A DNA stretch of 64,000 nt from a virus (Duplodnaviria > Heunggongvirae > Uroviricota > Caudoviricetes): IMG/VR virus record IMGVR_UViG_2609459792_000007; one strand, given 5' to 3'. The position numbers and the translations under genes were made by a program. The notes under the pieces are model-generated. The model saw nothing but the letters and a program-made list of their open reading frames with translations. It searched no databases and was not told the DNA's origin. Below are positions 10,082 through 62,735 of this stretch, piece after piece; positions within the stretch are counted from its first letter, which is position 1, and each line of letters begins with the position of its first letter.

Positions 10082-10156
10082 GATGGTGTAGCTCAGCGGT
10101 AGAGCAGTTGGCTGTTAACCAACTGGTCGGTGGTTCGAATCCACCCACCATCGCCA
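10082..10156 (+). tRNA. tRNA-Asn (anticodon GTT)
   Basis: Hand-folded cloverleaf: acceptor gatggtg/caccatc, D-stem gctc/gagc, anticodon stem gttgg/ccaac with loop ctGTTaa, T-arm ggtgg-ttcgaat-ccacc, CCA end. Confidence 0.85.
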
Positions 10157-10161
10157 ATTTA

Positions 10162-10248
10162 GGGGAGTTAGTCCGTAGAGGTAGCGGGGTAGACTGTAAA
10201 TCTACTGTCATGGAGACTCGGGTGGTTCGACTCCATCACTCCCCACCA
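10162..10248 (+). tRNA. tRNA-Tyr (anticodon GTA), long variable arm
   Basis: Acceptor ggggagt/actcccc, anticodon stem gtaga/tctac with loop ctGTAaa, T-arm ggtgg-ttcgact-ccatc, CCA; D-arm not cleanly canonical. Confidence 0.6.
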
Positions 10249-10252
10249 AATT

Positions 10253-20300: not shown

Positions 20301-20848
20301 ACCCCAAACGATCGGCTGAAATTAACGCACTCATGACACGGATGGCGGCTGAAATGGGCTTAGGTGATGAACTAATCCGCCCCAGCATTGGTATTAAGCC
20401 GAAAATCATGATCATTCTGGACAATGCAAACGGCAATGATGCTCGAACCGGTTACTTCATGGAGAACGGATACGACGATTTTAAGGCCAAGCTGTTGACG
20501 GCTGGAGATTTGCGCATGGGCGATCTCTATGTCACAGGCGTTTGCAAAAAGGTGAAAGACAAAGAAAAGGACTACACCAAAGACGAGATCGGCCAGTTCA
20601 CCGACTTTATGCGTGAAGAGATCAATCTGGTACGTCCGACCTATGTGCTGACGTGTGGCAGTCGGGCAACGGCATTGTTTAACAACAAAAACAAGCCATC
20701 CGATTTAGTCGGTAGGAAGGAGTATCTTCCAGACCTTGACGTTACAGTCTTTTACGGGTTTAACCCCAACATTCTTTACTTCAGACCTGAAGAGGGAGAA
20801 CGACTAGAAGCGATATTAGCCGACGTAGCAGAAACTATTAAGTCGTGA
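17330..20848 (+). CDS. DNA polymerase III alpha-like replicative polymerase (PHP domain)
   Basis: 1172 aa; DnaE-type motif GPGRGSSAGSLVAWCIGIT; N-terminal PHP-like region; conserved cacATG start context. Confidence 0.85.
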   Translation: MKALMVRTDFSLGESALKAENAVKIAREAGYTAVISADSMNIASVIPLQRAAGDDMAVICGVKLNIVDDPTYEHRAKLAKESMRCMESLERGRNYSFTALIKNEQGYRDICELMTAANTREQFYFVPRLSLEQLVSTYAKGNIILLTSDIGSVFQRNDFAKIISTLITAGGKDNFYSVVYPHPTPFYDQINVRAMKVASALKIEPVAFYPAYYESIDDADIKDIAHMVTNNIKIDQPHRLRIPHQRDNAVNGRRHLLEALKAFSVRMDVPVTAAMASTTQDSIIEACTWRWHELPPALPKMADDEPATLMKLAVAGLRKRLTTKEFGYTPPASENRVYVERLKYEMDTLTRLGFCGYFLMVRDLMNHSRETGIPVGPGRGSSAGSLVAWCIGITNVDPIRHGLLFERFINPERLDLPDADLDFSQARRHEVIEYLNERYGEDYVAGIPNFTYLGAASALRDTARIYGVESADMAVSKELKNAEDDSLPLEELREQLASLDKYATKYPDAFNAACKLQSLMRGFGRHAAGMIVAGVPLTERTPVERRGDARCIAFDKRYCEAMGLIKLDVLGLATLDLLDSAKRYIKENTGEDINLDAISLEDRKVLDGFAAGYTQGVFQLESGPMRKLLKDLGGGIEPMSFKTVVATTALFRPGPIQSGMLDDYVSVAKGFMTPESLHPVLDELTAETNGVILYQEQTMNATRLLAGFTMAEADAVRSAIGKKNMEKMKSMGEKFIVQAQAGWIDVELEDGTTQRIHRAEHFKCEDGTLKTVEEALEHGAKLPINAVRVTASHPGLSEMKAKEIWTAFEKNGAYQFNKSHSVAYSLISYQSMWLKTHYPAEFFAAALTILGEDKHQGLVKDALTYGIRVLPPDVNVSSNRIEIRTLEDGSQVLYAPFSAVKGCSENGCQAIMRAREKVGGKFESLAQFEEAVEKRACNSRVRESLQKVGAFASIEPGSLPATDPERLRDQAELMGNLVIDAVKASRPFEMNPKRSAEINALMTRMAAEMGLGDELIRPSIGIKPKIMIILDNANGNDARTGYFMENGYDDFKAKLLTAGDLRMGDLYVTGVCKKVKDKEKDYTKDEIGQFTDFMREEINLVRPTYVLTCGSRATALFNNKNKPSDLVGRKEYLPDLDVTVFYGFNPNILYFRPEEGERLEAILADVAETIKS

Positions 20849-23824: not shown

Positions 23825-24898
23825 ATGGCAAAAGGAAAATCCGCACTGGCACTTGCTCTGAAAAAGAAAATCGGTAGCAACGACGAAATTCAGAAAGTAA
23901 CTCATTGGATTGACACAGGCTTTCCTCCGTTAAACAAAGCTATTTCCGGTCGTTACGATGGCGGTTTCCCATGTGGTCGTATCGTAGAAGTATTCGGGCC
24001 GCCAAGCGCGGGGAAAACCTTTTTGGCAACAGCAGCAATGATCTCCGCTCAGAAACAAGATGGTCTGGCGGTATTCCTCGATCATGAGAACAGTTTTGAC
24101 GTTGGCCTGGCGGTAGCCAATGGCTTGAATGCAGATGAGGATGACGGTCAGTGGGTATACAAGCAGCCAGATACCTTCGAAGACTCTGTAGAGTTGATCG
24201 GCACAATACTTAAATTGGTACGTGATGAAGAGCTTATCCCTGAATCAGCACCTATCTGTATCGTGGCTGACTCACTTGCGTCTATGGTTCCGAACTCCAA
24301 AGCCGAGAAGTTCGAAAAGATGGCTGAAGGCACTGCTAAAGACAAAGATCAGCTAAACATGAACGACAATACGGCGCTTGCTCGTGCGACGAGCGCAAAC
24401 TTCCCCACTCTGGCTTTGTGGGCACGCAAATATAACGCCTGCATTATTTTCTTGAATCAGGTTCGCACAAAAATCGGTGTAATGTTTGGCGACCCTACGA
24501 CGTCGCCAGGCGGCGATTCACCGAAGTTTTACGCTTCTGTGCGCATCCGTCTCGGTGCATCGGTGATGAAGGATGGTAAAGAGAAGATCGGTCAGGACGT
24601 AGGCGCAGAGTGCATCAAAAACAAAGTTGCACCACCGTATGGCAAGTGCACCTGGAAATTCTACTTCGATCCTACTCGTGGCCTCGACGTTATCGAATCG
24701 CTCGTCGAGTACATGCTGGAAGAAGGATACCTGCCAAAGAACGCCAGCGGTCGAGTAGAAATTGGTGACAAGAAATACACCAAATCACAGATCGTCGAGA
24801 TGTATCGGGAGAAGCCACTAGCTGAAATCATTGCGGCTTTACAGGCAATCGACGACCGGAGATCAAAAGACAATCCCACCGAGTCAGTAGAAGAGTAA
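23825..24898 (+). CDS. RecA-like recombinase
   Basis: Walker A GPPSAGKTFLA; RecA-like core VEVFGPPSAGKT...FLDHENSFD. Confidence 0.8.
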   Translation: MAKGKSALALALKKKIGSNDEIQKVTHWIDTGFPPLNKAISGRYDGGFPCGRIVEVFGPPSAGKTFLATAAMISAQKQDGLAVFLDHENSFDVGLAVANGLNADEDDGQWVYKQPDTFEDSVELIGTILKLVRDEELIPESAPICIVADSLASMVPNSKAEKFEKMAEGTAKDKDQLNMNDNTALARATSANFPTLALWARKYNACIIFLNQVRTKIGVMFGDPTTSPGGDSPKFYASVRIRLGASVMKDGKEKIGQDVGAECIKNKVAPPYGKCTWKFYFDPTRGLDVIESLVEYMLEEGYLPKNASGRVEIGDKKYTKSQIVEMYREKPLAEIIAALQAIDDRRSKDNPTESVEE

Positions 24899-38330: not shown

Positions 38331-40646
38331 ATGATAAGCATCGTAAAACGTAACGGCCAAACAGAGCCGTTATCCGAAGAAAAATACAACCGCGTCGTAA
38401 TGTATGGCGTAGAAGGCATTCGTGGTGTAAGCGCATCCGCTGTAGCAATGGGAGCTGCGGCCAGCATTTTTGATGGGATTACCACCAGCCAGTTGCATGA
38501 GGCTTTGGTTAAATCTGCCGCTGATTTGATCTCACCAGAAGCACCAAATTACTCACAGGTGGCTGCCCGCCTGAACATTTTTAAAATCCGCAAAGATGCC
38601 TTCGGTCGTTACGACTATCCGAACTTCTACCAACACATTGTCAAGAACGTTAACAAGGGCGTTTATGACAAGGATTTGCTGACACATTATTCGTTTGAAG
38701 AGATCGAAGAACTCGGCAATTACATTAAGCCGAAACGTGACGATCTTTTTGGCTATGCAGCTACGGTGCAGTTGCAAAGCAAATACCTCGTTCAAAACCG
38801 TGTTACTGGTGAGATTCATGAGGGGCCGCAACATATCTATATGCTGGTAGGCATGTGTCTGTTCCAGAATTGGGAAGACGACTGCGCTGGCAAAACACGT
38901 ATGGAGATGGTCAAAGGTTTCTATGACGTTACAAGTACGTTCAAACTGTCTCTGCCCACACCAATCATGGCCGGCGTCCGTACTCCAACCCGTCAGTTCT
39001 CCAGTTGTGTGCTGATTGAGTCTGGCGATAGTCTGAAAGGGATTAGTGCAGCTTCAGCCGCAATTATCGACTACGTTTCACGTCGTGCTGGAATTGGTAT
39101 TGGTTTTGGCCGTATCCGTGCGCTGGGCAGCGAGATCCGCAATGGTGAAGCCACCCATACTGGAGTTATTCCATTCCTGAAGCATTTCCAGACGGCTGTT
39201 AAATCTTGTTCGCAAGGTGGTGTTCGTGGTGGCGCAGCAACAGCGTTTTACCCGATCTGGCATCTTGAAGTTGAAAGTCTGCTGGTGGTGAAAAATAACC
39301 GTGGTATTGATGAAAACCGCGTTCGCCATCTTGATTACGGCGTCATGAGTAACCGTCTAATGTACCGTCGACTCGTCAGAAGCGAGAACATCACTCTGTT
39401 CAGCCCGCATGATGTGCCTGATATGTACGAAGCCTTCTTCACAGACCAGGAGCTGTTTGAAAAGCTGTACCATAAATACGAAGCCGATGATTCAATTCGC
39501 AAGAAGTCAGTACCTGCCATTGAGCTGTTCTCATCTCTGATGCAGGAACGAGCGTCCACGGGCCGAATTTATATTGCGAACGTCGATCATATTAACGAGC
39601 ATGGCGCTTTCATTCCTGCTCTTGCACCTGTTCGCCAGTCAAACCTGTGCATGGAGATCACTCTACCCACTCGTCCACTGGCATTTACCGACGACCCGAA
39701 CGGTGAGATCGCGCTATGCACTTTATCCGCTTTTAACCTCGGAGCCATCCGTTCACTGGAGTCTCTTAAAGAGGTGGCGTTCTATGCCGTTGCTGCACTG
39801 GATTCGTTACTGGATTATCAAGACTATCCGATGGAGGCAGCCGAAGTGCCTGCCAAAGCTCGTCGTAGCTTGGGAATTGGTGTAACCAACTTTGCTTATT
39901 ACCTGGCAAAGAATGGCGTTCGTTATTCTGATACCGCTGGCAATAAACTGGTGCATGAAACGTTCGAAGCTATCCAGTATTACCTTCTTGATGCCAGCTG
40001 CCGACTTGCTGAAGCAAAAGGTGAGTGTGACTGGTTTGAGCAGACCAAGTACGCAATTGGTCAGTTGCCGATCGACCATTACCGTTCTTCATTAGACGAA
40101 AGTGGCGAAACCAACTTTGAGTTAAAGATGCCGTGGGAAGAACTGCGTGAACGTATTGCAAAATACGGCCTTCGCAACTCCACACTGACGGCACAAATGC
40201 CATGCGAGACTTCCAGCCAGATCACTAATTCCACCAACGGCATCGAACCGCCTCGTGGACCGGTGTCGGTGAAATCTTCTAAGGACGGCATCGTTAAGAT
40301 GGTCGTGCCTGAGTTTGAAAAACTGAAGGAACAGTATGAATACCTGTGGGATATGCCGGACAACCGCGGCTATCTGACAAAGGTGGCGATCATCCAGAAG
40401 TTCTTTGACCAGGCTATTTCAGCCAATACCAACTATGACCCTTCTCGCTTTGAAGGCGATAAAGTCCCAATGATGACGCTACTGTCAGATTTGCTTCTCG
40501 CCTACAAGATGGGAGTTAAAACGCTTTACTACCACAACACCAGAGATGGGGCAGGAAAGCGTGATGACGACGAACCGCAGAATCCACTGACGCAAGCTGT
40601 AGCCGTCGAGCCAGAAGATGAGTGCGACGGAGCCTGCAAAATCTGA
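38331..40646 (+). CDS. nrdA: Ribonucleotide reductase class Ia large subunit
   Basis: 771 aa; N-terminal ATP-cone-like region; followed by nrdB. Confidence 0.85.
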   Translation: MISIVKRNGQTEPLSEEKYNRVVMYGVEGIRGVSASAVAMGAAASIFDGITTSQLHEALVKSAADLISPEAPNYSQVAARLNIFKIRKDAFGRYDYPNFYQHIVKNVNKGVYDKDLLTHYSFEEIEELGNYIKPKRDDLFGYAATVQLQSKYLVQNRVTGEIHEGPQHIYMLVGMCLFQNWEDDCAGKTRMEMVKGFYDVTSTFKLSLPTPIMAGVRTPTRQFSSCVLIESGDSLKGISAASAAIIDYVSRRAGIGIGFGRIRALGSEIRNGEATHTGVIPFLKHFQTAVKSCSQGGVRGGAATAFYPIWHLEVESLLVVKNNRGIDENRVRHLDYGVMSNRLMYRRLVRSENITLFSPHDVPDMYEAFFTDQELFEKLYHKYEADDSIRKKSVPAIELFSSLMQERASTGRIYIANVDHINEHGAFIPALAPVRQSNLCMEITLPTRPLAFTDDPNGEIALCTLSAFNLGAIRSLESLKEVAFYAVAALDSLLDYQDYPMEAAEVPAKARRSLGIGVTNFAYYLAKNGVRYSDTAGNKLVHETFEAIQYYLLDASCRLAEAKGECDWFEQTKYAIGQLPIDHYRSSLDESGETNFELKMPWEELRERIAKYGLRNSTLTAQMPCETSSQITNSTNGIEPPRGPVSVKSSKDGIVKMVVPEFEKLKEQYEYLWDMPDNRGYLTKVAIIQKFFDQAISANTNYDPSRFEGDKVPMMTLLSDLLLAYKMGVKTLYYHNTRDGAGKRDDDEPQNPLTQAVAVEPEDECDGACKI

Positions 40647-40752
40647 CATATGGTGGGGGATATCCCCACCTTCTCTTTGATTTGTAAGCCTTGTTTAAAC
40701 ATATAAGATAACAACTTGTTTAAACGCACCAAAAAAGAAAAAGGAAAAACAC

Positions 40753-41895
40753 ATGTCATATTCAACGTTCCGTTTGGGTGCTAATGATGCAACCAAAGAG
40801 CCTATGTTCCTCGGACAATCTGTCAACGTGGCACGTTACGATCAGCAAAAATACCGTGATTTTGAAAAGTTGATTGAACGTCAATTGTCTTTCTTCTGGC
40901 GGCCGGAAGAAGTTGATATTTCGAGCGATCGTATCGACTTCAACACGAAGCTGCGGGACCACGAACGTCACATTTTTCTGAGCAATCTCCGTTATCAAAC
41001 GTTACTCGATTCAGTTCAGGGACGTAGCCCAAATGCAACGCTGCTGCCGCTTATCTCTATTCCTGAACTGGAAACGTGGGTTGAAACATGGTCTTTCTCT
41101 GAGACTATCCATAGCCGCAGCTACACCCACATTATTCGTGGCATGGTGGACGATCCGAGCATTGTTTTTGACGGTATTGTTACGGATGAAGAAATCATCA
41201 ACCGAGCGATCAGTATCTCTGCTGAATATGACAGGCTTTATGGGATGACCTGCGAGCGCCAGTCGTTAGGTGAGAAGGAGTTTGAACGTCTGTACGTAAA
41301 TGAATATGGCTGGGAGCCATACCCTTTGCACCGTCAGCTTTTCCGCACGTTGGTGTCCATTAATGCGCTTGAGGCGATCCGTTTCTATGTAAGTTTTGCA
41401 TGTACGTTTGCCTTTGGCGAACGGAAGTTGCTTGAGGGTAACACCAAAATTATGCGCTTTATTGCCCGTGATGAAGCTCTGCATTGCGAAGGAACTGAAC
41501 GCATGATCCGCTTCATGCGTACCGGTCGCGAAGGTTTATTGTGGAAAGAGATTGCTGCTGATGAAGAAAACGTCATTTACGACACCATGAAATCAGTCGC
41601 CGAACAAGAAATGAACTGGGCAGACTATCTCTTCAAAGACGGTTCGATGATTGGTTTAAACGCGGATATTCTCAAAACCTATGTAAAATACCGCACCAAT
41701 CTGGCTATGAATCGTCTTGGCCTGAAGGCTTTATTTCCAGAGGTTACCACCGATCCGCTGGTCTGGATGAACAAGTGGTTGTTAACCGACACACTGCAAA
41801 TTGCACCACAAGAGGCAGAGCAAAGCACATATCTGGTAGGTCAGATCGATTCTACCGTGGATAAGGCTTCTCTAAGCCAGTTTGCTGACCTGTAA
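40753..41895 (+). CDS. nrdB: Ribonucleotide reductase class Ia small subunit
   Basis: 380 aa; di-iron ligand-like ExxH patterns; conserved cacATG start context. Confidence 0.85.
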
Positions 41896-41972
41896 ACCGA
41901 TACAAAGCATTATGTGGCCTGGCAACGCTGGGCCACAATGGATCACAAGAATTAAGAAGGAACAAAACTAGC

Positions 41973-42842
41973 ATGAACTTTACCAAACTGACTGACCACC
42001 TGAAACTTGCCACCGATCGACTCATTGGATTTAAGCCAGAACCATATGAGTTGCATGAAGGTCATGGTGTAGCTACTGAAAGTATTTACAAGATGGTCGA
42101 TCAGTTTCATGAACTCTTCCAGCATCCGAGACGCGTTATGCCGACACCAGAGCTGCTTCGTCTCCGTGCAAGCCTGATTCATGAAGAAGCTGTAGTGGAA
42201 GGTATTCCAGCCGCAATGAATGGGGATATTGAGCAACTGCTGGATGCAATGGCCGACTTTTTATACGTTGGTGTTGGTACGATGGTCGCCATCAAAGGTG
42301 GTATTTCTACCGGCATGACCTATTACACGCAGGAACAGAGCATTGATCGCTTTATGCAGACAATTTTTGTGCCTGGTAACACTGTTTTCGATGATATGGC
42401 AATGCCATTTCAGGAAGCTCGTGAGGCGTCATGTATGCTCGAAGAGCTGGCAGATAAACTTGAGAACAAGACTGTTAAGGATTCTGAGCTGATTCAGGAA
42501 CTGCGCCGTGTCATGAACAAAATCTATGTGGCGTGCATGATGACCTATCGACTGGCTGATTTCCTCGGTATCAATGTAGTCGAGCTGGTTGGCGAAATTC
42601 ATCGGTCTAACATGACAAAATTATGGCCTGCTGATGTTGAGGAACGTCGCCAGGCTGTGGCCAACTGCAAATACGACTCTTCAGATCTGGGATTCCGCCA
42701 TGCTGATGGCACCGATAAGATGATCGGTTTTCGAATTTCCGATGGAAAGATTCTGAAGTCTCCAACCTATAGTGATGTCGATTTATCCTCCTTTGTTGAG
42801 CAAGCTAAAGCCTCGGCAATGTACGGAATGATCAAAAAATAA
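41973..42842 (+). CDS. Putative MazG-like all-alpha NTP pyrophosphohydrolase
   Basis: EExxE...D pattern in LIHEEAVVEGIPAAMNGDIEQLLDAMAD; assignment tentative. Confidence 0.35.
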   Translation: MNFTKLTDHLKLATDRLIGFKPEPYELHEGHGVATESIYKMVDQFHELFQHPRRVMPTPELLRLRASLIHEEAVVEGIPAAMNGDIEQLLDAMADFLYVGVGTMVAIKGGISTGMTYYTQEQSIDRFMQTIFVPGNTVFDDMAMPFQEAREASCMLEELADKLENKTVKDSELIQELRRVMNKIYVACMMTYRLADFLGINVVELVGEIHRSNMTKLWPADVEERRQAVANCKYDSSDLGFRHADGTDKMIGFRISDGKILKSPTYSDVDLSSFVEQAKASAMYGMIKK

Positions 42843-42910
42843 TTGTAGGTAGTTATCTATCTGTGTATATTGCGTTGGCGCGTTAAATTTCTGAAACAAC
42901 TATTCGTTTT

Positions 42911-42937
42911 TGGTGGCCTATGGCCACCATTTTTTTA
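42911..42937 (+). terminator. Terminator after MazG-like gene
   Basis: tggtggcc-tat-ggccacca hairpin plus T7. Confidence 0.7.
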
Positions 42938-43013
42938 TCTGTCTGGTCTTGTTCTCTCAATAAATGTAAACTCACGCAATGAATAAGTGGTTACTTATCT
43001 TTGTGAGGTTTTT

Positions 43014-44117
43014 GTGTCACTCCTTTTGAATCGTGAGCATACGAACGGTCAGGTAACAAACGCATCGTATGCAAAAGTTATTGAGACGGTGCTTAAAAGC
43101 GGCGTGCAGGCTGATGATCGCACAGGCACTGGTACTTTAAGCACCTGCTACGTTCCCTCTTACTACATGCTTACTGGTGGGACTGTGCCGCTTATTTCTG
43201 GAAAGGCGGTAAATCTTAAGCCACTGCTTGTCGAACTTGAGTGGTATCTGAAAGGCACGGGCAACATCCAATTTCTCAAGGATAACGGCGTTAAGATTTG
43301 GGATGCATGGGCCGATGAGAATGGCGATTTGGGGCCGGTTTACGGTAAGCAGTGGCGTCGATGGGAAGATACCCGCATCGTGAGCCATAGTGAATATCTG
43401 AGCAAGATCGATACTTTCCGTGAACGCGGGTACAAAGTCGAGGGATACCTGGGTATCAGTGAAGATCGCGTAGTGCTGTCCCGTGAAATCGATCAGCTAC
43501 AGCGTATTGTCGATACACTGCGCACGAACCCTACCGATCGTCGCATCATGCTTAACGCATGGAACGTAGGCGAGCTTGAGGATATGAAACTGCCACCTTG
43601 CCACTTTGTCTTCTCTTTGTGGAGTCGTGAGCTTGATTTTGAAACCCGTTTAACGATGGCAACTGACATTGGTCTTCAACACAGTCGCCTCGGTTATGAG
43701 TCTATCTACACCAAGATGCTATACGATCTGGAGATGGACGGCAGTGTTACTGAAACTGAACTGGATGAACTTGGAATCCCCAAACGCATCCTCAACTCCT
43801 GCCTCGTACAGCGTAGCGTAGACACTTTTGTTGGTATGCCATTCAATATTGCTGGCTATGGCATTCTCACTCATTTTCTCGCGAAGATTACGGGTCACAT
43901 GGCCGGTGCATTTGTGCATTTTGGCTTTGACGTGCATTTATACAATAACCACATGGAAAGTGTGTGTGAGCTAATGAAACGACAGGCTCCAGAGCATTCA
44001 GATCCGGTCGTTATTTTCCCTCATGAATGGTCTGAGCTGGATGATTTCAAATGGGACGATATTCTGATTCTTGGCTATGACCCTCTACCGTGGATCAAGG
44101 TTCCAGTGGCGGTGTGA
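43014..44117 (+). CDS. thyA: Thymidylate synthase (ThyA family) with internal insertion
   Basis: WADENGDLGPVYGKQWR, active-site PPCH, RSVD...PFNIAGY with Asn retained; ~50-aa insertion between FSLW and the RSVD block; GTG start 43014 after RBS gagg. Confidence 0.8.
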   Translation: MSLLLNREHTNGQVTNASYAKVIETVLKSGVQADDRTGTGTLSTCYVPSYYMLTGGTVPLISGKAVNLKPLLVELEWYLKGTGNIQFLKDNGVKIWDAWADENGDLGPVYGKQWRRWEDTRIVSHSEYLSKIDTFRERGYKVEGYLGISEDRVVLSREIDQLQRIVDTLRTNPTDRRIMLNAWNVGELEDMKLPPCHFVFSLWSRELDFETRLTMATDIGLQHSRLGYESIYTKMLYDLEMDGSVTETELDELGIPKRILNSCLVQRSVDTFVGMPFNIAGYGILTHFLAKITGHMAGAFVHFGFDVHLYNNHMESVCELMKRQAPEHSDPVVIFPHEWSELDDFKWDDILILGYDPLPWIKVPVAV

Positions 44118-44118
44118 T

Positions 44119-44532
44119 ATGGCAAGAGGTATGTATGTCTTATGCGAAATTGAAGGTGTGCTGGCAAATACAAGCCATCGTAAATCTGTATCTGACGCGG
44201 ATGCAGGCCAGCTCATTGCCGGTGATGAACTCATTTTCCCCACCAGCCGTATGTTGCGTGGTTTTGCTCGCTCAGGGGCTGAAGTGGTGCTTATCAGTAG
44301 CCGCTCTGAAACTCTTGAAGCGCCAACTAAACGATGGCTGAAAGATTTTGGCGTTGATTATGACTGGCTTCATCTCGTACCGAATGGCACCAGTTATGAG
44401 AAGCATATTAAGCGCACATTAGCGGAGCATAAAGGCGATCTGCTTATCGCTGCGCTGGTGCACGATCCTCGACTCCGTGCCGCTTTAGCCGACTCTCACC
44501 ATCGACCGGTCATCTATGAGGTGAGCAAATGA
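44119..44532 (+). CDS. Hypothetical protein
   Basis: ORF between thyA and DHFR; ATG 44119 directly after thyA stop. Confidence 0.4.
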   Translation: MARGMYVLCEIEGVLANTSHRKSVSDADAGQLIAGDELIFPTSRMLRGFARSGAEVVLISSRSETLEAPTKRWLKDFGVDYDWLHLVPNGTSYEKHIKRTLAEHKGDLLIAALVHDPRLRAALADSHHRPVIYEVSK

Positions 44533-45005
44533 AGATGATCGCTGCTGTTGGCCGTAACTATGAGATCGGCATAGCGAATGAACTCCCCTGGCGTTGTTCT
44601 ACCGATCTGAAGCTATTTAAGAGACTCACCAAAAACGCCACTGTCGTTATGGGGCGTAAAACGATGGAAAGTCTCAAACGCCCTCTTCCAGAGCGTCATA
44701 ACCTCGTTTTGACGCGCTCTCATGGCTTTGTACCAAATGGATTCTACCCTGCTGGTGTGGATGATGTGTTGCGATTACCAGAGCCTGTGTGGGTGATTGG
44801 CGGGGAACAAATTTACTCGCTATTCATGCCGCATGTTGAAGAGATTTGGCTCTCCCACATCGGCGTTGATGTGCCAAACGCTGATGCATTCTTCCCGGCA
44901 AGCATGATGCGTAACTTAGGCTTTGTGCCTGTTGAAACAGCTTATACCCAACGAGCCAGCGAGGAAGAGCCTGGCTTTTCGCAGATCGTATACAGAAGGT
45001 CGTAA
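44529..45005 (+). CDS. Dihydrofolate reductase
   Basis: N-terminal MIAAVGRNYEIGIANELPW...LTKNATVVMGRKT..SL.RPLPERHNLVLTRS matches DHFR signature. Confidence 0.85.
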   Translation: MKMIAAVGRNYEIGIANELPWRCSTDLKLFKRLTKNATVVMGRKTMESLKRPLPERHNLVLTRSHGFVPNGFYPAGVDDVLRLPEPVWVIGGEQIYSLFMPHVEEIWLSHIGVDVPNADAFFPASMMRNLGFVPVETAYTQRASEEEPGFSQIVYRRS

Positions 45006-58477: not shown

Positions 58478-58637
58478 AGATGTAATCCCAGGTGATGTGG
58501 TCATAACATCTAAAGGCAAACGATGTGCGGTTAAATCTTTCTGGATGGAAGGTGACAAAGTGACTCTGTTCGGTACGGATGGTTCCGAAACGGATTATGA
58601 CTACGACGAATTGCTTGTTGTTGAGAGAGCTATCTAA
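58449..58637 (+). CDS. Hypothetical small protein
   Basis: Start moved to ATG 58449 (track start 58416 is TTG). Confidence 0.3.
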   Translation: MMRTVEVRAEDVIPGDVVITSKGKRCAVKSFWMEGDKVTLFGTDGSETDYDYDELLVVERAI

Positions 58638-59305
58638 TGACCACCGTTAACAATAAGAAATGCTACCCAAGCGAGAAATATCTTAATGAGCTGATCACCA
58701 ACATTGAGTTCGCTGCAAGGGCACCAGTTGAAGTCGTGAGAGCGATTGCAGCAGAGCTACAGAAGTACCGTAAGGCCTATGCCAATACAGCCGCAACTAA
58801 GGATGGTTGGATAAGCTGTAGTGAGCAGATGCCTGTAATTGGCGAGCTAAATTGGAGAACTAGTTTTCCTTTGCTGATTACGTGTGAGATCGGCGTTATA
58901 CCTGCTTATTACGGCTTTGTAAGCATTAATGGTGAAAGACATTATGGCTTTATGGAGAGTTTTAAATACGGAGATGAGCACGGCAACCACCCTCAAACTA
59001 ATGAATATGGCTTCATTAGTAATGTCACACACTGGATGCAGCTACCAGAACGCCGCAGGAGTCGAAGAGTGAATAAAGCAGAGTTATTTCAGAAAATATC
59101 GGCTCTCGCGACTGAATGCCACGCTATAGCATCTGAGCTTGATGTTGGCGGTGAACGAACCGAGATGTTCGAAATATACAGTGTGCTGCGCAATCTCTGT
59201 CGGCGTGGCTACGCTACTCAGGTGGGGCGAATGACTAACCCACTACTCTCATCCTGTGATGAGGATGACTCGGATGAGGATGACTCGGATGAGGATGACG
59301 AATGA
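58637..59305 (+). CDS. Hypothetical protein with acidic DEDDSDEDDSDEDDE tail
   Basis: 222 aa; C-terminal Asp/Glu/Ser repeat. Confidence 0.4.
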   Translation: MTTVNNKKCYPSEKYLNELITNIEFAARAPVEVVRAIAAELQKYRKAYANTAATKDGWISCSEQMPVIGELNWRTSFPLLITCEIGVIPAYYGFVSINGERHYGFMESFKYGDEHGNHPQTNEYGFISNVTHWMQLPERRRSRRVNKAELFQKISALATECHAIASELDVGGERTEMFEIYSVLRNLCRRGYATQVGRMTNPLLSSCDEDDSDEDDSDEDDE

Positions 59306-59685
59306 TGCATAAATCAGTAGCCGGTGAGTTTCAGAAGGAAGTCGATAATACCACTGATCTATTGGACGATATTTTAAGCATTCTCGCGCTGCTTGAGGCT
59401 GGCGATTGGTCAGAACATTGCACTAAAACAGAGCTAGGCGGTCGGCTTGAAAGAGAGATTACACGACTGATTAGCGATGCCCAAAATGATTTGTCACCTG
59501 AGCATCTCCCCTGCGATGTAGTCCTTGTGCCAGGGGTGAGGATACACGAAGGCGTCAGAACGAAAACATTATTAACCGCATTACAGAGAAGAGCCGAACT
59601 AAGCTCGCGGATAAAGTTGATGCCATCCAAAATATTTGATGTCGTCAAATTTACGCCATCGCAACATACTGAGAGAGATAAATGA
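59302..59685 (+). CDS. Hypothetical protein
   Basis: 127-aa ORF, translationally coupled. Confidence 0.4.
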   Translation: MMHKSVAGEFQKEVDNTTDLLDDILSILALLEAGDWSEHCTKTELGGRLEREITRLISDAQNDLSPEHLPCDVVLVPGVRIHEGVRTKTLLTALQRRAELSSRIKLMPSKIFDVVKFTPSQHTERDK

Positions 59686-60510: not shown

Positions 60511-61035
60511 ATGACTAAATTTGGAAAGCTGGAAGCTCATTTGCTAACTCGTAACTACCGCCATGATGTGCATCCATATAGACAGTGGATCGATGAAAGC
60601 GAAGGAGTTGTTACATTCCCTCTATACAGGTTTGATGGGATGTTGGCCGGGTATCAGACATACAGACCAGGCGCTCCTAAGCAGCATAGCAATCCGAAGA
60701 TGGCCCGGTATTTCACACGAGCGCACGGCAGACAGCTACTATGGGGAACCTATCTTCCTTTAAAAGATGGACCGATATGGATAACTGAGTCGATTTTTAA
60801 AAGTGCAGCAGTGCACAACGCGGGCGGAAATTCGTGGGCGCTGTTAGGTTCGACTTTCTCAGCAGGATTACGTCGTCAACTGGCAATGCTGCCGTATGAC
60901 TTTCGCGTAATAGGTGACAATGATGCGGCTGGTGAATCACTTGTGAAGTCTTTCGGAAAAGGTTTTGTGGCCCCGGATCTTGACGAGCTACAACCAAATG
61001 AAGTGTCTCATTTGATTTTTAGCCATAGCCAATAA
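60511..61035 (+). CDS. Toprim-like domain protein
   Basis: ITESIFKSAAV (Glu) followed by GDNDAAG (DxD) in Toprim-like spacing; tentative. Confidence 0.35.
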   Translation: MTKFGKLEAHLLTRNYRHDVHPYRQWIDESEGVVTFPLYRFDGMLAGYQTYRPGAPKQHSNPKMARYFTRAHGRQLLWGTYLPLKDGPIWITESIFKSAAVHNAGGNSWALLGSTFSAGLRRQLAMLPYDFRVIGDNDAAGESLVKSFGKGFVAPDLDELQPNEVSHLIFSHSQ

Positions 61036-61171
61036 GCATCCCTTCTCCATTAAGGCCACTAGTTGTGGCCTTAAACAATTTGTTTTCTACCTTTTCTTGT
61101 TCGAGAAAATAACGTTCCTTTGTCTGGTGCTATGTACCGAACAGTTGCACTGAGTGAGCTTCTTTCATGTA

Positions 61172-61191
61172 TACTGTATGAATGAACAGTA
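61172..61191. promoter_or_regulatory. LexA (SOS) box
   Basis: TACTGTATGAATGAACAGTA = CTGT-N8-ACAG palindrome, 17 bp upstream of the UmuD'-like start. Confidence 0.8.
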
Positions 61192-61207
61192 TTGAGGGCA
61201 AAACGCT

Positions 61208-61597
61208 ATGGGCTTCCCTTCTCCTGCGGCGGATTATGCTGAGAGCCGTATTTCTCTTGATCAGCAGATAATTAGACATCCTTCAGCGACCTACTTCATG
61301 AGGGCAGCTGATAGTCATCATCGTGAGGGAATATTACAGGGTGCATTGCTGGTGGTCGATTCCTCACTTACCCCGGTTGATGGTTCTCTGCTTGTATGCG
61401 CTCTGGATGGGGAATATCGCGTAAAAAGATACCGGAAGTATCCACGTCAGCATCTGGAGGATTTAAGAACCGGTAAGAAGGAAGCATTGCCAAAGGATGA
61501 CGATGGGTGCACGGGCAGCAATGCCGTGTTTGGTGTGATCACTCACATTATCAACGACGCAAGAAGTGGCGAGTTTGATGATTGTCCCGTGATGTAG
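61208..61597 (+). CDS. UmuD'-like S24 peptidase-fold protein, pre-truncated, no umuC partner
   Basis: Starts MGFPSPAADYAE (UmuD residues just after the autocleavage site); SATYF..A.DS....GI..GALLVVD; LexA box upstream. Confidence 0.8.
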   Translation: MGFPSPAADYAESRISLDQQIIRHPSATYFMRAADSHHREGILQGALLVVDSSLTPVDGSLLVCALDGEYRVKRYRKYPRQHLEDLRTGKKEALPKDDDGCTGSNAVFGVITHIINDARSGEFDDCPVM

Positions 61598-61608
61598 GAG
61601 AACTGATT

Positions 61609-61633
61609 AGGCGGTGCAATGCACCGCCTTTTT
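61609..61633 (+). terminator. Terminator hairpin at element/chromosome boundary
   Basis: aggcggtgc-aat-gcaccgcct plus T5; ends 2 bp before the apbC stop codon on the opposite strand. Confidence 0.6.
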
Positions 61634-61634
61634 A

Positions 61635-62735
61635 TCACACTGCGCGGAATGCGATTTCGCCAGGTATTACTTCACCTTGCCAATACATTTGGGCAGCAAC
61701 GCGATCTGCGAGGTCACGATAAATAGCCGTAAATTCGCTATCTGGACGACTAATAACGGTTGGTGTTCCGTTATCCAGATCTTCACGAAGAGAGATATGA
61801 AGTGGCATTTGGCCTAACAACTGCGTGTTGTATTTCTCGGCCAGTTTCTCTGCGCCACCGGTGCCAAAAATTGGCTCGTGATGACCGCAGTTACTGCAAA
61901 TATGCACACTCATGTTTTCAACGATACCCAGTACCGGCACTTCGACTTTTTCGAACATCACAATGCCTTTCTTCGCATCGATCAGCGCGATGTCTTGCGG
62001 CGTAGTTACCACAACAGCACCAGTTACAGGAATGTTCTGCGCCAGCGTCAATTGAATATCACCAGTGCCCGGCGGCATATCGAGAACGAGATAGTCCAGA
62101 TCAGGCCACAGTGTTTCCTGCAACATCTGCATCAGCGCCTTGCTGGCCATCGGTCCACGCCACACCATTGCATTGTCGTCGGTGACCAGATAACCAATAG
62201 AGTTGGTTGCCAGGCCATGAGACATGATAGGTGCCATGTGAGTACCGTCCGGTGAGGTTGGACGTTGGTTTTCCGCGCCCAGCATGGTTGGAATTGATGG
62301 ACCATAGATATCGGCATCCAAAATACCAACTTTCGCACCTTCAGCAGCCAACGCCAGTGCCAAGTTTACTGCTGTGGACGATTTGCCTACACCGCCCTTG
62401 CCTGAGCTTACGGCGATAATATTCTTAACGCCATTAATGCCTGGTTGGTTTTTGACGCGCTTAAGCGTGGCAATGTTGTACGACAGCTTCCAGTCAATAG
62501 CCTTTGCGCCAGTGATACGGAGCAGATCACCACTACATTGCTCTTTCAGGTCTTCAAAAGGCTTATTCCACACGAAAGGCATGATTAGTTCGACATGCAG
62601 TGTGTCATCCATCAACGCAACATGGTGTAACGCTTTAAGCGTAGTCAGGTTGTGTTTCAGGGTTGGGTGCTGAAAATTAGCCAGCGTACCGGCTACCATT
62701 GCTCTCAGGGCATCCGGCGATTTGGACTCGCTCAT
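61635..62735 (-). CDS. apbC: Iron-sulfur cluster carrier ATPase ApbC/Mrp
   Basis: Walker A SGKGGVGKSS, C-terminal CSNCGH; near-identical in recalled motifs to enterobacterial Mrp; divergent from metG. Confidence 0.9.
   Translation of the reverse strand: MSESKSPDALRAMVAGTLANFQHPTLKHNLTTLKALHHVALMDDTLHVELIMPFVWNKPFEDLKEQCSGDLLRITGAKAIDWKLSYNIATLKRVKNQPGINGVKNIIAVSSGKGGVGKSSTAVNLALALAAEGAKVGILDADIYGPSIPTMLGAENQRPTSPDGTHMAPIMSHGLATNSIGYLVTDDNAMVWRGPMASKALMQMLQETLWPDLDYLVLDMPPGTGDIQLTLAQNIPVTGAVVVTTPQDIALIDAKKGIVMFEKVEVPVLGIVENMSVHICSNCGHHEPIFGTGGAEKLAEKYNTQLLGQMPLHISLREDLDNGTPTVISRPDSEFTAIYRDLADRVAAQMYWQGEVIPGEIAFRAV

Follow-up and report, generated by a model that had tools for sequence, protein, structure and literature searches.

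The question raised by this locus is whether a short gene that lies behind an SOS box encodes a UmuD′ protein made directly in its cleaved form, and with which partner and on what kind of element such a protein would act. The gene was found near the end of a DNA stretch of 64,000 nucleotides from a virus of the Caudoviricetes (IMG/VR record IMGVR_UViG_2609459792_000007), and this stretch, in its whole length, is called the window. The original prediction for the region had described a LexA-controlled, stand-alone UmuD′ at the edge of the element. The window gene is, on its sequence, a stand-alone, LexA-box-preceded and pre-cleaved UmuD′ homologue of the P1 HumD type, and is named humD here. 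The HumD identity of the gene is already known, as the family is curated and the exact protein is named in RefSeq. The reading preferred here, with a rough probability of 0.85, is that humD forms a compact cassette, complete in itself (SOS operator, ribosome-binding site, gene and terminator), which is carried as cargo by a phage-plasmid, and that its product would be a LexA-repressed, pre-processed UmuD′ that pairs with the UmuC of the host.

Reading frame and N-terminus of HumD

The coding sequence and the signal that precedes its start codon were located at the following positions.

61208-61597, + strand: humD coding sequence (ATG start, 129 amino acids, TAG stop), pre-processed UmuD′ homologue
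61194-61198, + strand: Shine-Dalgarno sequence GAGGG, read from the sequence, 9 nt 5′ of the ATG and overlapping an in-frame TGA

The humD open reading frame (ORF) was found to encode a protein with the N-terminus MGFPSPAADY. Residues 25-139 of K-12 UmuD were aligned by tblastn with positions 61211-61564 of the window at 42% identity, and UmuD residue 25 onward was paired with codon 2 of the humD frame, as was also found in the PDB alignments. Since UmuD was aligned from residue 25, codon 2 corresponds to the Gly that forms the N-terminus of UmuD′ after cleavage. The in-frame TGA was found at 61193-61195, 12 nt 5′ of the ATG, with no start codon in between, and a longer N-terminus or an N-terminal arm of HumD was ruled out because this stop codon closes the upstream frame. 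The 129-amino-acid protein had been predicted to begin with the residues that follow the UmuD cleavage site, and the presence of Met followed by the Gly25 equivalent behind the upstream TGA agrees with this. An alignment had also been proposed as a check of the N-terminal truncation and of the catalytic residues; it began at UmuD residue 25 and contained the equivalents of Ser60 and Lys97.

The presence of the catalytic Ser and Lys, together with family entries of 148-223 amino acids, would also be compatible with a full-length, self-cleaving UmuD or a LexA-like repressor whose true start lies upstream. The chance of this is negligible in view of the TGA at 61193-61195 and the lack of a start codon between it and the ATG. 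The longer family entries were found to hold an internal Met-Gly-Phe-Pro behind extensions that are mutually unrelated, which suggests that their starts were miscalled. The only Pfam domain of the window HumD was Peptidase_S24 (PF00717, 37.9 bits against a cut-off of 23.3), and no DNA-binding domain was found by Pfam. Against NF007621, the model of the autoproteolytic UmuD subfamily, the window HumD scored 87 bits, under the cut-off of 110.

Protein family, fold and conserved residues

The window HumD was matched by the NCBIfam equivalog model NF051876 ('HumD family translesion DNA polymerase') with a score of 219.8 bits (cut-off 120) over the whole profile, positions 1-129 of 129. The identity to HumD of phage P1 (AAQ14181.1) was 91.5-92%, and these two results agree with the P1 HumD-type arrangement that had been predicted. 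Identical proteins were found in RefSeq (WP_000506720.1, which bears the same family name in the Prokaryotic Genome Annotation Pipeline, PGAP) and in phage Cyrano (CYRAN_98, 100%). The closest PDB relative by sequence was E. coli UmuD′ (1UMU, E = 6.7e-23), with the alignment starting at UmuD′ residue 1. The same structure was the best PDB fold match of an AlphaFold2 model of HumD. This model was of moderate quality (mean predicted local distance difference test score, pLDDT, of 67), with a confident core and values under 50 for residues 1-25 and 120-129, and it is uninformative on the C-terminal tail.

The Ser of the motif ADSH and the Lys of the motif VKRY in HumD were aligned with the catalytic Ser60 and Lys97 of UmuD in a multiple alignment. 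The UmuC-contacting core of UmuD′ was found to be kept in HumD at the sequence level. The N-terminal arm, the Cys/Ala-Gly self-cleavage site and a umuC operon were all found to be absent from the window HumD.

When a large protein collection was searched, 555 clusters were obtained at E ≤ 1e-10, and the top 120 representatives were aligned with the query, giving 121 sequences. Most of the clusters had their origin in Escherichia, Citrobacter, Klebsiella, Enterobacter, Salmonella and Kluyvera, and the HumD family name was already attached to many. Met alone was found to precede the Gly25 equivalent in 110 of the 121 aligned sequences. The Ser60 position was occupied by Ser in 76, Thr in 43 and Ala in 2 sequences, followed by the presence of His at the next position in 108, and the Lys97 position was found to contain Lys in 118 of 121. 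The C-terminal tail NDARxxEFDDCPVM (residues 116-129 of the window protein) was nearly invariant in the family and reached 10 residues past the end of UmuD. The alignment columns of note in the window HumD were residues 36-39, 73 and 116-129.

LexA box and candidate promoter

The region upstream of humD was found to contain an operator and an overlapping candidate promoter.

61172-61191, unstranded: LexA operator (SOS box) TACTGTATGAATGAACAGTA, 20 bp, final base 16 nt before the ATG
61145-61175, + strand: candidate promoter, −35 TTGCAC at 61145-61150 and −10 TATACT at 61170-61175 with a 19-nt spacer, inferred

A canonical SOS box had been predicted at 61172-61191, and TACTGTATGAATGAACAGTA was found exactly there, with CTGT at 61174-61177 and ACAG at 61186-61189. 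Agreement with the consensus was found at 16 of the 20 positions of the box and was complete over the 12 outer ones. The extended form TACTGT-N8-ACAGTA occurred once in the window against 0.00 expected from 100 dinucleotide-preserving shuffles. The bare core CTGT-N8-ACAG occurred twice in the window against 0.79 expected and carries no significance alone; because this core is frequent by chance, only the extended box counts as evidence.

The P1 record AF234173 was found to contain an annotated LexA binding site, TACTGTATAAATGAACAGTA, 19 nt before humD, and the window box differs from it by 1 base. The operator of umuDC in K-12 is, for comparison, TACTGTATATAAAAACAGTA. In N15, HK639, p09EL50 and Cyrano, a box with 2-4 mismatches to the consensus was found 14-19 nt before the start codon, and in phiKO2 a lexA site is annotated upstream of the humD homologue. 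LexA would be expected to bind TACTGTATGAATGAACAGTA, and humD has been described as a LexA-regulated SOS gene (PMC9603915).

The candidate −10 TATACT was found to overlap the left arm of the LexA box. The TTGCAC of the candidate promoter was also found in P1, and TATACTGT was also found in p09EL50 and Cyrano. The promoter is the weakest part of the proposed unit, and 61145-61175 is put forward as a candidate for its exact position.

Transcription unit, selection and neighbouring genes

The gene was found to be bounded on both sides by hairpins, and the features that flank it are as follows.

60511-61035: toprim/primase-like gene upstream of humD
61050-61074, + strand: hairpin after the toprim/primase-like gene, 10 pairs by a terminator-like scan, fold −16.2 kcal/mol, weak T-tail
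61609-61633, + strand: intrinsic terminator of humD by terminator scan, stem at 61609-61629 with 9 pairs (7 G-C) followed by TTTTT, fold −18.6 kcal/mol
61635-62735, − strand: apbC, an Fe-S carrier, 759.7 bits against the ApbC equivalog
about 62893 to past the window end, + strand: metG, methionyl-tRNA synthetase

The terminator and then apbC that had been predicted after the gene were thus both found, the hairpin of 9 pairs with its TTTTT being followed by apbC. The hairpin at 61050-61074 is likely to be the upstream boundary of the humD transcription unit. As humD has a box, a ribosome-binding site and a terminator of its own and a hairpin stands after the upstream gene, it looks like a separate transcription unit.

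The window humD and the P1 humD were found to differ at 55 nucleotides and 11 amino acids, giving a synonymous rate (dS) of 0.77 and a nonsynonymous rate (dN) of 0.042. The resulting dN/dS of 0.055 indicates strong purifying selection on humD.

The proximity of humD to the apbC-metG segment, which is derived from the chromosome and starts 37 bp away, raises the alternative that humD is a decayed remnant of umuDC, namely a umuD pseudogene, truncated at its 5′ end, that stayed behind at a recombination junction next to chromosomal DNA captured there. Truncated humD fragments (amino acids 45-128) at the ends of Stx2 phages would fit such decay. The gene of the window was nonetheless found to match the HumD model over its full length, to carry its own operator, Shine-Dalgarno sequence and terminator, to share the Met-Gly start with 110 of 121 family sequences, and to be retained in hundreds of plasmids. 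The pseudogene explanation, which is very improbable, was refuted by the selection and family data.

Of 5,426 complete E. coli genomes, 770 (about 14%) were found to contain a humD-like sequence. The window allele (at least 95% DNA identity) was found in about 196 records, of which the sampled ones were plasmids of about 106-120 kb. Another 576 records were found to match humD at 80-90%, and most of the sampled ones were plasmids in the range of about 70-102 kb, which is typical of P1-like elements. The remnants noted above, which cover amino acids 45-128 only, were found in Stx2-converting phages and in mEp234/Sf101; they are mostly unannotated and lie near the genome ends or att regions of several lambdoid and Stx2 phages.

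Partner polymerase and proposed action of HumD

No UmuC homologue was found in the window or in a complete 108-kb relative by tblastn with K-12 UmuC (E > 1), in line with the prediction that the gene has no umuC partner. The PGAP annotation of the 108-kb plasmid relative was found to contain no Y-family polymerase. The humD homologues of P1, N15, phiKO2, HK140 and HK639 were also found without an adjacent umuC. The window was found to contain two other genes that may bear on the choice of partner.

17330-20848, + strand: DnaE-type polymerase III (Pol III) alpha subunit
23825-24898, + strand: divergent RecA-like recombinase, 153.7 bits against the RecA equivalog cut-off of 325

On the preferred reading, the LexA of the host would occupy the operator overlapping the −10 element in an undamaged cell and humD would be off. 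After DNA damage, RecA filaments would lead to the self-cleavage of LexA, followed by the transcription of humD. The product would be made straight in the form that UmuD attains only via RecA-stimulated self-cleavage at Cys24/Gly25, and a HumD dimer would join the host-encoded UmuC in a translesion polymerase of the polymerase V (Pol V) type. With the cleavage step left out, the usual delay before mutagenic synthesis would be avoided, and the element would contribute no polymerase subunit of its own. In 1999, McLenigan et al. reportedly identified HumD of P1 as a homologue that functions like UmuD′ in SOS mutagenesis. From its 92% identity to the P1 protein, the window HumD would be expected to substitute for UmuD′ with UmuC in SOS mutagenesis, and the gene would presumably benefit the phage-plasmid that carries it.

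Three points weigh against this reading. The conserved family tail EFDDCPVM was found to have no counterpart in UmuD′. No sigma-70 site was found on the + strand by a consensus scan that allowed spacers of 16-18 nt, the best candidate being the one with the 19-nt spacer. The element's own RecA-like protein and DnaE may leave room for partners besides the UmuC of the host.

The first and the third of these points also bear on the only rival that has real weight, in which HumD acts mainly as a modulator that binds the replisome (Pol III of the host or DnaE of the element) or RecA filaments, or that forms heterodimers with the UmuD of the host, and so tunes replication, recombination and SOS timing for the phage-plasmid. 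Products of the umuD gene contact Pol III subunits (a paper on this appears among the references of PMC4713147), which is in keeping with such a role, as is the presence of dnaE (17330-20848) and the divergent recA-like gene (23825-24898) on the element. The tail absent from UmuD′ and the Thr nucleophile in 43 of 121 sequences suggest constraints unlike those of UmuD. Set against a modulator are the P1 protein of 92% identity, which is reported to work in SOS mutagenesis as a homologue of UmuD′, the conservation of the UmuC-contacting core at the sequence level, and the lack of direct evidence for any alternative partner. A role mainly as a modulator is unlikely on balance, and the pairing of HumD with host UmuC is preferred.

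It is also doubtful, on the same material, that HumD is more than a shortened UmuD′ and serves the post-damage replication of the phage-plasmid itself rather than just boosting the Pol V of the host. The pointers to such an extra role are the near-invariant 10-residue tail SGEFDDCPVM, the protease motif ADSH/xxTH against GDSM with Thr in about one third of the members, and the presence of DnaE and a divergent RecA-like recombinase on the same element. The tail could mediate a HumD-specific contact with replication or recombination proteins of the element, or an escape from the proteolysis that limits UmuD′.

Location in an SSU5-like phage-plasmid

The window lies, as judged by its collinearity with known elements, in the interior of an SSU5-like phage-plasmid of E. 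coli and not at the edge of an element. Positions 151-64000 were found to be collinear with the circular 108,278-bp plasmid pPRO_A-1422-6M-A_2 at 97.4-99.1% identity, across the origin of that record. The first 25 kb of the window were found to be 96-98% identical to the phages CMS-2020a, Cyrano and PhiR41_1, and 80.6% identical to Salmonella phage SSU5. With a 1.6-kb query covering toprim, humD and apbC, 22 records were matched at an identity of at least 99%; the best 20 of these were all about 108-115 kb, and the two that were inspected were circular plasmids. The same query matched 5,784 records at 80-90%, mostly chromosomes, which is consistent with the chromosomal apbC.

The original prediction had placed the gene at the element edge, with apbC as an implied chromosomal flank, and this part did not hold, as the window continues collinearly with a circular phage-plasmid in which apbC-metG is followed by more phage genes. 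In the relatives (the 108-kb plasmid and Cyrano), apbC and a complete metG were found to be followed by regulators, a helicase, ParB, terminase and structural genes. The apbC-metG segment of the window was found to be 86.6% identical to that of the K-12 chromosome. A chromosomal prophage edge at humD was ruled out by the collinearity with circular plasmids and by this level of identity. Among the 80 best species-representative chromosomes, no donor of apbC-metG above 87.3% DNA identity was found, and Escherichia species were the closest. The segment, in which apbC and metG form a divergent pair, is cargo of the phage-plasmid and looks as if it had been captured long ago and maintained rather than picked up recently. 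The chromosome-like homology was found to start at 61633-61645, at the apbC stop codon and 37 bp from humD, and since it begins only there, the humD terminator lies outside the captured segment.

Several other stretches of the element were noted. A second LexA-like box, TACTGTTTACTTATACAGTG, was found at 11618-11637, 26 nt before the ATG of a tyrosine recombinase/integrase ORF (11664-12767, + strand). This box contained 1 mismatch in the 12 outer positions and was kept in the 108-kb plasmid relative, which suggests that the recombinase gene may be a second SOS-controlled gene of the element; SSU5 itself was found to lack a LexA-boxed recombinase module. Apart from 58654-59352, no sizeable part of the window lacked a match in the closest plasmid relative; this stretch covers most of the ORF at 58637-59305. 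This ORF ends in an acidic DDSDEDDSDEDDE repeat and lies within a variable block of ead/Ea22-like genes.

A dihydrofolate reductase gene at 44529-45005 (+ strand), assigned to the nrdA/nrdB/thyA cluster at 38331-44117, was found to match trimethoprim-resistant DfrA51 with 338.2 bits against a cut-off of 322. The presence of dfrA51 in SSU5-type phage-plasmids has been described (PMC12217456).

A tRNA cluster (Asn, Tyr, Thr and Ser) was found at 10082-10639, and part of it resembles the tRNA region of the P1-like phages P7 and D6, with an identity of about 94%. The tRNA-Tyr was found to span a gap at about 10159-10220 in the alignment to the closest plasmid relative, in which 3 tRNAs (Ser, Thr and Asn) are annotated. 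The cluster provides further evidence of an exchange of modules between P1-like and SSU5-like phage-plasmids.

Exchange of the cassette and its significance

The DNA similarity between P1 and the window was found to be restricted to 61161-61596 (box, Shine-Dalgarno sequence and coding sequence), at 85.6%. No homologue of P1 lxr, the divergent partner of the LexA box, was found in the window. The humD coding sequence and the DNA downstream were found to be identical in Cyrano and the window, followed in the upstream direction by unrelated DNA, and the LexA box of Cyrano was again found 16 nt from the ATG. As the upstream DNA of Cyrano is unrelated and the distance of the box is the same, a recombination breakpoint is placed just upstream of the operator. 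These boundaries are the signature of a moron-like cassette (box, ribosome-binding site and gene) that would move among temperate phages and phage-plasmids. In the part of Cyrano that was compared with window positions 60511-61207 (Cyrano 11200-12000), no toprim gene was found to be annotated upstream of the gene.

As a discovery the locus carries little weight, given a curated family, a protein named in RefSeq and a P1 homologue characterised in 1999. The reading of the window is nevertheless corrected, in that all 64 kb belong to one SSU5-like phage-plasmid and apbC-metG is plasmid cargo and not a chromosomal flank. The locus is also a clear case of a portable cassette of operator, gene and terminator, under SOS control, exchanged between the P1-like and SSU5-like families of phage-plasmids. 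The frequency of about 14% in complete E. coli genomes bears on how frequently clinical E. coli can carry out damage-induced mutagenesis without passing through the UmuD cleavage checkpoint.

Comparison with known systems

HumD of P1 was found to share with the window protein the length of 129 amino acids, the Met-Gly-Phe-Pro start, the tail SGEFDDCPV, the lack of an adjacent umuC and a LexA box at a nearly equal distance from the ATG. In P1, the LexA box lies between the divergent lxr and humD, followed by the presence of phd-doc downstream, whereas the window humD is carried by an SSU5-like siphovirus phage-plasmid, with a toprim gene upstream and the terminator and apbC-metG downstream.

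N15 gp26, phiKO2 Gp23 and the 'UmuD-like' proteins of HK140 and HK639 were found to belong to the same family at 64-73% identity, with the pre-cleaved start and the C-terminal tail in common. A LexA box was found upstream in N15, phiKO2 and HK639 as in the window, and in N15 and phiKO2 a terminator is annotated right after the gene. The proteins of N15, phiKO2, HK140 and HK639 were found to contain Thr at the Ser60 equivalent, and that of HK639 Met at the Lys97 equivalent, whereas the window HumD contains Ser and Lys.

E. coli UmuD′ (1UMU, 1AY9 and 1I4V) was found to share with HumD the fold, the core sequence and the positions of the Ser/Lys dyad, and both genes have a LexA box. UmuD′ is the product of the RecA-stimulated cleavage of a 139-amino-acid precursor encoded in an operon with umuC, whereas the window HumD is translated short. 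HumD was also found to contain ADSH where UmuD has GDSM, followed by the presence of 10 additional residues at the C-terminus.

UmuD homologues of the ImpA type, which are S24 proteins of SOS mutagenesis on mobile elements, were found in the plasmid search as matches of less than 60% identity. MucA and RumA are UmuD homologues of plasmids and of integrative and conjugative elements. The UmuD homologues of such elements differ from the window humD in that they are full-length precursors that need cleavage and are encoded together with a UmuC-type polymerase of their own.

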